DNA of 64,000 bases, taken from Escherichia coli. GTDB taxonomy: Bacteria > Pseudomonadota > Gammaproteobacteria > Enterobacterales > Enterobacteriaceae. The notes below the pieces were generated by a model, which worked only from the letters and a program-made list of their open reading frames with translations, was not told where the DNA came from and ran no database searches. Positions 1 to 1,931 of this stretch are shown piece by piece. Where the stretch lies: assembly GCF_044324875.1 (NCBI RefSeq), contig NZ_CP172185.1. One strand, given 5' to 3'. A program made the position numbers and the translations under genes. Numbering within the stretch: position 1 is the first letter of the stretch; each line of letters starts with the position of its first letter.

Positions 1-1311
1 CAGCCCGCGCAGGCGGCGCTATGGCACGATAAACAAGGCCATCTTTCACATTACATGGTGCTGATCCAGCGCAGTGGTTTAAGCAAACTGCTGGAGCCAT
101 TGTTGTTTGCCGCTACCAGCGACAGCCAGTTAAGCAAAACGGAAATCAGTAGTATTAAGCTAAATAGTGAAACCATCCCGGTTTATCAGTTGCGCTATAA
201 CGGCAATAACGCCCTGATGTTCGCGACTTATCAGGACAAGATGCTGGTGTTTTCCAGTACGGATATGCTGTTTAAAGATGACCAGCAGGATACCGAAGCC
301 ACGGCGATCGCAAGTGATTTGTTGAGCGGTAAAAAACGCTGGCAAGCCAGCTTTGGCCTGGAAGAGCGTGCTGCTGAAAAAACGCCAGTACGCCAGCGCA
401 TCGTGGTCAGCGCCAGGTTGCTGGGGTTTGGCTACCAGCGATTAATGCCTTCTTTTGCTGGTGTACGCTTCGAAATGAGCAACGACGGCTGGCATAGCTT
501 TGTGGCGTTAAATGATGAATCCGCAAGCGTAGATGCCAGTTTCGATTTTACGCCGGTATGGAACAGTATGCCTGCCGGGGCCAGCTTCTGTGTGGCGGTG
601 CCGTATTCGCATGGTATTGCCGAAGAGATGCTTTCGCACATCAGCCAGGAAAACGACAAGCTGAACGGGGCGTTAGATGGTGCAGCCGGGCTGTGCTGGT
701 ATGAAGACTCAAAATTACAAACCCCGCTATTTGTTGGTCAATTTGATGGCTCAGCCGAACAGGCACAACTGCCTGGGAAACTGTTTACGCAAAATATTGG
801 TGCGCACGAAAGCAAAGCGCCAGAAGGTGTTTTGCCGGTAAGCCAGACTCAGCAGGGCGAAGCGCAAATCTGGCGTCGCGAAGTGAGTTCCCGATACGGC
901 CAGTATCCGAAAGCGCAGGCGGCGCAACCCGATCAATTAATGTCGGATTATTTTTTCCGCGTGTCGCTGGCGATGCAAAACAAAACGCTGCTTTTCTCCC
1001 TCGATGACACGCTGGTTAATAACGCCCTGCAAACACTGAATAAAACCCGCCCGGCAATGGTGGATGTAATACCCACTGATGGCATCGTTCCGCTCTATAT
1101 CAATCCACAAGGCGTGGCGAAACTGCTGCGTAACGAAACGTTGACCAGTCTGCCGAAGAATCTCGAACCGGTTTTTTATAACGCCGCACAAACTTTATTA
1201 ATGCCGAAGCTGGACGCTTTATCTCAACAACCGCGTTATGTCATGAAGCTGGCCCAGATGGAACCCGGTGCCGCCTGGCAGTGGCTACCCATAACCTGGC
1301 AGCCGCTATGA
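1..1311 (+). CDS. yfaA: YfaA-like exported protein (DUF2138 family), 5' end lies upstream of window
   Basis: Reading frame is open from base 1 (no stop before the ORF-track ATG at 55); TGA stop overlaps the next gene's ATG (ATGA at 1308-1311); first gene of a five-gene co-directional cluster; identity from recalled gene order and protein similarity. Confidence 0.8.
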
Positions 1312-1931
1312 GGCACGGGCTGCTGGCGCTGATTTGCTGGCTGTGTTGTGTTGTTGCCCATAGCGAAATGCTGAATGTCGAACAGTCGGGGCTGTTTCGC
1401 GCGTGGTTTGTACGCATTGCACAGGAACAACTCCGCCAGGGGCCAAGCCCACGCTGGTATCAGCAGGATTGTGCGGGCCTGGTGCGATTTTCGGCGAACG
1501 AGGCGCTGAAAATTCACGACAGCAAATGGCTAAAAAGTAACGGTATAGCAAGTCAGTATTTGCCGCCTGAAATGACGCTAACACCTGAACAGCGTCAACT
1601 GGCGCAAAACTGGAATCAGGGGAACGGGAAAACCGGCCCCTACGTGACCGCGATTAATTTGATTCAGTACAACAGCCAGTTTATTGGCCAGGACATAAAC
1701 CAGGCGCTGCCTGGCGATATGATTTTTTTCGATCAGGGCGATGCCCAGCACTTAATGGTCTGGATGGGGCGTTACGTCATCTACCACACCGGAAGCGCCA
1801 CGAAAACTGACAACGGAATGCGCGCAGTCAGTCTGCAACAACTTATGACATGGAAGGACACCCGATGGATACCCAACGATTCCAATCCCAATTTCATTGG
1901 CATTTATCGTTTAAATTTTCTGGCGCGATAG
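1308..1931 (+). CDS. yfaT: YfaT-like exported protein (DUF1175 family)
   Basis: ORF-track frame 1281..1931; start placed at ATG 1308 ([20 protein letters not shown], signal-peptide-like), giving 207 aa; ATGA overlap with yfaA stop. Confidence 0.8.

Follow-up and report, generated by a model that had tools for sequence, protein, structure and literature searches.

The window analysed here is the whole 64,000-nucleotide (nt) stretch taken from the Escherichia coli contig NZ_CP172185.1. It opens with the operon yfaA-yfaT-yfaS-yfaQ-yfaP, and our subject is the junction between the second and third of these genes, where the 3' end of yfaT and the 5' end of yfaS appear to occupy the same DNA. The window shares 99.8% identity with strain WP4-S18-ESBL-07, and 5,393 of 5,426 complete E. 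coli genomes contain the region of the junction. In order, the five genes encode a DUF2138 protein (YfaA), a DUF1175 protein (YfaT), a protease-trapping alpha-2-macroglobulin (A2M; YfaS), a DUF2300 protein (YfaQ) and a DUF2135 protein (YfaP); the order DUF2138-MagC-A2M recurs among the related loci with annotated neighbours. YfaT matches Pfam PF06672 (DUF1175) with E=3.6e-58 (197 bits, where the cut-off is 27) and the MagC structure, PDB 7BK8, with E=9e-103 across residues 21-206. YfaS carries four domains that score above the Pfam cut-offs, PF01835, PF07703, PF00207 and PF17973 (MG2, A2M_BRD, A2M and bMG10). Lack of the CXEQ thioester motif defines the type II bacterial class (PMC3735191; PMC5764988), and there is none in the 1534 residues of YfaS, whose Cys content is limited to positions 25 and 1189. 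The Pseudomonas aeruginosa magC-magD pair (PA4490-PA4489, part of magABCDEF) lies in the same order of genes: DUF2138, MagC/DUF1175, type II A2M, DUF2300 and DUF2135. Since MagD is periplasmic, its first 64 residues being able to export a reporter (PMC3735191; PMC5764988), we have taken its homolog YfaS to need a signal peptide as well.

The yfaS frame, of 1539 codons, is the -1 frame with respect to yfaT and runs open between 1811 and 6469. The original prediction was of a 67-82 nt overlap, with the yfaT stop at 1929-1931 and the only ATG codons able to give YfaS a signal peptide at 1850 and 1865, and these coordinates prove to be correct: the two ATGs correspond to overlaps of 82 and 67 nt, respectively. 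The next in-frame Met, predicted to be about 90 codons further on and to lack the signal, is ATG 2117, which is 84 codons past 1865 and 89 past 1850 and is inside the mature protein. The other conceivable starts between them are ATA 1928, TTG 1940, CTG 1946 and GTG 1955; from 1868 to the cleavage site there are only such ATA, TTG, CTG and GTG codons, none with either a Shine-Dalgarno sequence (SD) or a complete leader. ATG 1865 is the sole candidate having an SD, with an anti-SD duplex of -5.5 kcal/mol and a 6-nt spacer, as against -1.5 kcal/mol or weaker for each of 1850, 1928, 1940, 1946 and 1955 (ATG 1850 is at +0.7). The E. coli junction has no canonical start at the yfaT stop and is thus not a termination-reinitiation pair of the 4-nt or 1-nt type. 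A programmed frameshift giving a YfaT-YfaS fusion was also considered in view of the -1 frame, but was rejected, as inspection of 1836-1931 by eye revealed no slippery heptamer. The features of the junction are collected in Table 1.

Table 1. Features at and around the yfaT/yfaS junction (window positions)
Feature	Position	Strand	Description	Source
yfaA/yfaT junction	1308..1311	+	ATGA, ordinary 4-nt coupled start; comparison case	
yfaT	1308..1931	+	DUF1175/MagC family, 207 residues, stop TAG 1929-1931	open reading frame list, RefSeq and K-12 coordinates
Near-invariant block CAACAACTYATGACATGGAAGGACACCCGATGGATACCC	1836..1874	+	kept by rare codons family-wide	
Upstream in-frame ATG ('-82')	1850..1852	+	no SD; probably not a start	
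SD GGAAGGA for ATG 1865	1852..1858	+	6-nt spacer	
Predicted conserved stem-loop	1852..1920	+	SD and ATG 1865 paired with downstream yfaT codons	RNAalifold
Proposed yfaS start ATG ('position -67')	1865..1867	+		
Putative dual-coding overlap	1865..1931	+	67 nt; last 22 yfaT codons and first 22 yfaS codons (signal-peptide n-region)	
Predicted Sec signal peptide of YfaS	1865..1978	+	38 residues; n-region with R5 and K17, h-region about 18-35, c-region ANA/DD	
yfaS from proposed start	1865..6469	+	1534 residues; type II bacterial alpha-2-macroglobulin, MagD homolog	
ATAG junction	1928..1931	+	ATA plus stop TAG; putative remnant of an ancestral ATGA	
GTG start in RefSeq records	1955..1957	+	24 nt after yfaT; judged a mis-call	

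A mature N-terminus of the pattern [DE][DE].[LV][PEN].S.Y aligns over about 90 loci, and in every one of them a hydrophobic stretch and a small-x-small site come before it. In the window, the ATG starts alone would provide a leader with a basic n-region, an h-region and the site ANA/DD (the slash marks the predicted cleavage); a tripartite leader, its parts assigned by eye and charge count, is obtained only from 1850 or 1865, and weakly from 1928. The earlier claim that only the two ATGs retain the full signal peptide agrees with these predicted leaders. Residues 22-25 of YfaS, IAAC (1928-1939), also fit the lipobox pattern [LVI][ASTVI][GAS]C; this match is probably due to chance because the Cys is not conserved, being Tyr in Escherichia sp. 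E1V33 and absent from Salmonella and Superficieibacter.

With respect to the choice between the two ATGs, initiation at 1850 instead of, or alongside, 1865 would give an 82-nt overlap and a 43-residue leader. This codon is in frame, is the first ATG of the E. coli open reading frame and is present in 76 of the 80 loci of the census described below, where it is kept through the rare codons ACA or AAA of yfaT; in the predicted stem-loop it is unpaired. However, the only SD lies downstream of it, Salmonella has a stop codon between the -82 ATG and yfaS, and CTG replaces it in Aeromonas and in 4 of the 80 genome loci. We consider a start at 1850 improbable.

The databases are divided on this junction. 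The curated record of K-12 MG1655 places the yfaS start at the equivalent of 1865, with a 67-nt overlap with yfaT, whereas the RefSeq Prokaryotic Genome Annotation Pipeline (PGAP) starts the alpha-2-macroglobulin at GTG 1955 in all three of the genomes read fully; in eight further records that we sampled, only yfaT is annotated under 1832-1931. Were the RefSeq call right, there would be neither an overlap nor a signal peptide, and the gene pair would obey the usual rule against long overlaps (PMC2478687). Nevertheless, the product of GTG 1955 has no hydrophobic core and no signal peptide, although the family is periplasmic; the codon lacks an SD and is not conserved in E. albertii; and a signal-peptide-like h-region with an AxA site is kept across Escherichia just upstream of it. 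In our opinion the RefSeq start is very unlikely to be the true one. The intervening TTG 1940 is likewise missing from three Escherichia species. Called starts differ among the relatives too, metagenomic ones included (GTG+23 in RefSeq E. coli, ATG+23 in Salmonella, -67 in Aeromonas, GTG+17 in L087 and ATG+42 in L091), and in L093 the downstream gene is not called at all; several of the gene calls (the set L001-L003, L085, L086, L087, L091 and L093) delete the signal peptide. If the RefSeq start is general, localisation predictions and constructs based on those gene models would be wrong.

To place the E. coli junction among its relatives, we have used a census of 80 genomes with a yfaT relative, kept from at least 510 genome loci, along with ten further related loci found by other routes, including those of Salmonella, Aeromonas and a P. 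aeruginosa-type locus; one candidate of 45% identity (L094) was a different, NlpC/P60 protein and was dropped. The junction tetramer is ATGA in 68 of the 80, mostly in Pseudomonas; the tetramer holds both the ATG of the downstream gene and the stop of the upstream one, a 4-base overlap, and an ordinary leader begins at this junction ATG (for example, MNRLLAVALLALVPLAVQA/EDE). The remaining loci have CTGA (5), ATAG (4) or ATAA (3). ATAG is found in Escherichia (E. coli and three other species), ATAA or ATAG in Superficieibacter and ATAA in Salmonella; ATAA also occurs in two Pseudomonas loci (P. flavescens and the metagenome-assembled genome L040) and CTGA in several others. These are the changes that yfaT tolerates, either a switch to a different stop or to another codon for Arg, and their recurrence in separate lineages means that the boundary ATG has been lost repeatedly.

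What remains in the lineages without the boundary ATG is instructive. In S. electus (L008) the two upstream ATGs are the sole canonical starts from -118 to +150, and P. schmalbachii, P. jinjuensis and L040 have no other canonical start before the predicted cleavage site. Three distant relatives (L087, L091 and L093; YfaT 48-56% identical) have a CTGA boundary, an ATG or GTG at -67 and, preceding it, the SD sequences GGGAGGA, GGAAGGA or GGAGAGA. Their hydrophobic core spans the gene boundary, as in MAAHVRQPKLHWIFPLLFSFLLTGFSLLVGGSGALA/HD and MATGSRKPQFRRRLSLALLVALIVAAFAAARPDA/QY (the first residue from a GTG start being written as Met); the downstream proteins of these three could not start elsewhere. 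All told, the overlap arrangement of E. coli is also present in three other Escherichia species, two Superficieibacter and Salmonella, as well as in several Pseudomonas and the three distant relatives, so the proposal that its conservation be looked for in other Enterobacteriaceae has had a positive answer. The -67 ATG is absent from the loci with a spacer in front of magD (Methylobacter L080, and L090) and from those with stops in the alternative frame (L088 and L090). In Candidatus Methylobacter oryzae (L080:3562-3785) this spacer, of about 225 nt between magC and magD, contains a long inverted repeat, and the locus has lost the -82 ATG, the -67 ATG and GGAAGGA.

The same census bears on a quite different start. 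YfaS could begin at the near-cognate ATA 1928, by local reinitiation after the TAG at 1929-1931; the real overlap would then be only 4 nt and the upstream ATGs incidental. This ATA is located exactly where 68 of the 80 relatives have ATG, termination-reinitiation is efficient only over very short distances (PMC10666635), AUA is able to initiate in E. coli (bioRxiv 10.1101/063800) and basic residues persist just past the codon (TRYR in Salmonella, SRQPFSR in Superficieibacter). On the other hand, AUA has about 0.02-3% of the activity of AUG even with a good ribosome-binding site (bioRxiv 10.1101/063800), and here it has no SD; moreover, its E. coli leader is without a basic residue. Such a start would also leave unexplained both the distant relatives whose hydrophobic core begins before the boundary and the fact, described below, that in Escherichia synonymous change is lost ahead of 1928. 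We regard it as unlikely. Of the two possibilities offered by the original prediction, a true long overlap and initiation at a non-ATG codon within it, the first is preferred, with 67 nt from ATG 1865, while the second survives as a minor rival in the form of ATA 1928.

The proposed start itself is conserved across the family. An ATG at -67 is present in 79 of the 80 loci and GGAAGGA in 77, whereas, given the YfaT protein and the local codon usage, the ATG would be expected in 1.8% of loci; its conservation is not a matter of chance. Both the ATG and GGAAGGA are maintained by codons that yfaT otherwise seldom uses. The Arg codon CGA that creates ATG 1865 is used at its site in 79 of 80 loci, against about 2% of the Arg codons elsewhere in the same loci, and the Thr codon ACA (69 of 69 at its site, about 3% elsewhere) and the Ile codon ATA (74 of 80, about 2% elsewhere) behave similarly. 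Within the near-invariant block of Table 1, the proportion of synonymous differences (pS) is 0.24 of that in the remaining gene in the ATGA loci; a Fisher test on the block gives p=0.003. An open alternative frame was uninformative as a sign of -67 use in the ATGA lineages, since its chance expectation is already 0.78.

Within Escherichia, the overlap shows the constraint expected of sequence read in two frames. Among the codons with identical amino acids across five Escherichia sequences, the synonymous codon varies at 1 of 20 in the overlap compared to 47 of 141 in the rest of yfaT (p=0.005); for the last 32 yfaT codons, the figures are 1 of 28 against 47 of 133 elsewhere (p=0.0003). In the last 18 codons, pS is 0.00 in six of six Escherichia pairs, as against 0.20-0.36 elsewhere in the gene. 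In 2,157 pairs of ATGA-type loci with comparable divergence, the last 18 codons have 0.88 of the pS of the rest of the gene, so this loss of synonymous change is confined to the lineage for which the upstream start is obligatory.

It might be argued that yfaS is decaying or untranslated in Escherichia after losing its start, in which case the overlap would be meaningless. The gene is indeed a pseudogene (b4500) in K-12 MG1655 (L084:3799-8403) and is marked as frameshifted in strain ET761, and in 195 of the 5,393 genomes with a match, under 80% of the junction query is present. The 1534-codon frame is nevertheless intact in the window, and in three other Escherichia species it stays open for at least 1,038 codons past the junction. 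Within Escherichia, yfaS has a ratio of nonsynonymous to synonymous substitution (dN/dS) of 0.034-0.050, with dS reaching 0.8 (0.043 against E. albertii, where yfaT has 0.083), and this strong purifying selection argues that YfaS is made and functional. The junction is, furthermore, the most conserved of four 100-nt windows sampled in E. coli: of about 5,380 genomes, 96.6% match the query over 1832-1931 with an identity of 99% or more, compared to 3.6%, 65% and 85% for the three control windows. Decay is therefore hardly tenable as an explanation, although yfaS is dispensable in some lineages despite the strong purifying selection overall.

The 1852-1920 region is predicted to fold into a conserved stem-loop that would include both the SD and ATG 1865. 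In it, GGAAG (1852-1856) pairs with UUUUC (1916-1920), CGAUGGAU (1863-1870) with AUUUAUCG (1902-1909) and CCAA (1873-1876) with UUGG (1897-1900), and the same stem-loop is found in single-sequence minimum-free-energy folds of both the enteric and the Pseudomonas sequences. Across 84 aligned junctions, 92.4% of cells are paired compared to 27-50% with the partners slid, a score obtained on the same, mutually related sequences from which the stem-loop was derived. Six of the stem pairs change on both sides, for example from CCGA/UCGG in Pseudomonas to CCAA/UUGG in Escherichia. The fold is weak in E. coli (-10.5 kcal/mol), and it is no more stable than controls, either for the 160-nt junction (z=+0.28) or for 111-nt junctions against synonymously recoded versions (z from -0.35 to +2.35). 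Since its stability is matched by that of the recoded controls, the case for the hairpin is one of conservation and covariation, and we would call the support for it moderate. Where the Tyr codon changes from TAT to TAC, the A that is the partner of the ATG stays A, with a mismatch, and does not become G even though CGG is a preferred codon; this retention of A suggests that the start codon matters more than the pairing. A split ribosome-binding site, in which the fold would bring the SD beside the boundary start, was rejected because the SD is itself paired in the stem. An Rfam scan of 1600-2200 gave a lone match at chance level (13.8 bits, with the cut-off at 39), which lies outside the stem-loop, and promoter and terminator scans of the junction found nothing. 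As a minor possibility, the GGA motifs of the block, CAUGGAAG, AAGGAC and GAUGGAU, could be RsmA/CsrA binding sites, given that the mag operon is RsmA-regulated (PMC3735191), but they sit in the predicted stems, not in loops.

Taken together, these observations lead us to propose that the main start of YfaS is ATG 1865, within a genuine and conserved overlap of 67 nt, and we would put the probability of this at roughly 0.7. The use of the start and the export of YfaS via the predicted 38-residue leader are both read from sequence. The overlap would have been made by the loss of the boundary start codon and the use of an older upstream one. The ancestral, and still the common, magC-magD junction was presumably ATGA, with the downstream ATG lying over the upstream TGA; a change of the yfaT stop from TGA to TAA or TAG would then have turned this ATG into ATA in Escherichia, Superficieibacter and Salmonella, and independently elsewhere. 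An in-frame start 63 nt upstream, already present family-wide with its own SD, would now carry initiation through GGAAGGA at 1852-1858. As this start is too far upstream of the ATA for local reinitiation (PMC10666635), a separate SD-led initiation would be needed. Mature YfaS would be identical whichever start is used.

Such an arrangement need not be costly to either gene. The part of YfaS that is overlapped is the n-region of a cleaved signal peptide, for which nearly any stop-free and somewhat positive sequence would suffice, so the second frame should place little constraint on yfaT; the conserved C-terminus of YfaT would thus dictate the sequence of the overlap at little cost to YfaS. The hairpin may provide a link between the two. 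Ribosomes finishing yfaT would open the stem, whose pairing partners are 30-50 nt downstream, and expose the SD and ATG 1865, so that coupling of YfaS to YfaT could operate by unmasking of the start rather than by termination-reinitiation. A classical case of a hairpin that masks a downstream start and is opened by ribosomes is the coat/replicase pair of the RNA phages. In yfaT/yfaS, similarly, the predicted stem-loop hides the SD and the ATG and has its 3' arm in the last 40 nt of yfaT; unlike the phage case, however, this stem is a prediction only, weak and no stabler than its recoded controls.

Several points weigh against our proposal. In addition to the RefSeq calls at GTG 1955, the survey of Palleja et al. 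(2008) disfavours long overlaps from the outset, having found no real co-directional overlap of more than 60 bp among 715 cases, all those beyond that limit being misannotated (PMC2478687). The predicted leader of 38 residues, with an n-region of 17-21, is longer than usual. The predicted stem takes in the SD and ATG 1865, and initiation would be impeded for as long as it stays closed. The 1836-1874 block may be held in part by RNA structure, a constraint that is confounded with use of the start codon. Finally, the Escherichia synonymous test draws on four taxa and about 12-20 synonymous sites.

How does this junction compare with known overlaps? Among same-strand gene pairs, a 4-nt ATGA overlap is what is met most often (PMC10666635); it is the state of 68 of the 80 relatives and also of the neighbouring yfaA-yfaT junction, whereas yfaS in E. 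coli has ATA in its place. Like the cases in the survey of Palleja et al. (PMC2478687), yfaT/yfaS is a conserved same-strand overlap of two functional genes of the Enterobacteriaceae, but its 67 nt go past their 60-bp limit. Their rule, that a downstream gene longer at its 5' end than its orthologs is suspect, would flag yfaS, and yet no alternative start restores the length of the orthologs. The history that we propose matches the model of Fonseca, Harris and Posada (2013), in which overlaps arise through loss of a start and capture of an upstream in-frame one; it departs from that model in that the upstream codon was not a chance one, but was conserved family-wide with its own SD before the loss. 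The yfaT/yfaS overlap is accordingly a further well-supported example of a known phenomenon and not a new mechanism. Our literature search on yfaS, Escherichia coli and macroglobulin found nothing on the initiation of YfaS.

The P. aeruginosa-type locus was recovered with the PDB MagC sequence (an N-terminal protein query having given only fragments). It shares both the GGAAGGA-N6-ATG block and the predicted hairpin with E. coli, but it keeps ATGA and an extra ATG at +26, whereas the E. coli junction is ATAG and lacks a canonical start close to the boundary. Its junction (L092:2051-2250) thus contains three in-frame ATGs, at -67, -4 and +26, of which the gene call of the contig used -4, and the 26-residue MagD signal peptide of the literature corresponds to that at +26. 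The annotated start of P. aeruginosa MagD is 63-93 nt downstream of the -67 start, and the latter is not discussed in PMC3735191 or PMC5764988. It is possible, although in our estimate at somewhat less than even odds, that the -67 SD and start are functional for the alpha-2-macroglobulin throughout the family, P. aeruginosa MagD included, and perhaps that this is the older of the starts.

The remainder of the operon is unexceptional. The other junctions are tight and ordinary, with the yfaS stop abutting the GTG of yfaQ (6467-6472) and yfaQ and yfaP 4 nt apart (8117-8126); atoB is next, on the opposite strand at 8974-10158, as in K-12. By closeness, the relatives of YfaT are those of Escherichia, then Superficieibacter (80%), many Pseudomonas (about 73-76%) and only then other Enterobacterales; because this distribution is patchy, it suggests that the mag-type operon has been horizontally transferred.

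The known function of the YfaS protein is unchanged by these findings. The junction does, however, furnish a well-supported counter-example to the widely held view that same-strand overlaps of more than 60 bp are always errors, and with it a simple rationale for a long overlap, namely that the stretch of YfaS lying inside yfaT is a leader peptide that can be discarded. Should the -67 start be used family-wide, this would be a conserved co-directional overlap of more than 60 nt in which an export leader is written in the C-terminal codons of another protein, with rare codons to maintain it and a stem-loop, opened by translation of the upstream gene, to gate it. Many lineages would then make one mature protein from two or three starts, and this redundancy would explain the repeated, harmless loss of the boundary ATG. 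A conserved upstream start and a masking hairpin within magC would also bear on the synthesis of MagD, on its stoichiometry with MagC and on the unexplained larger forms of MagD.

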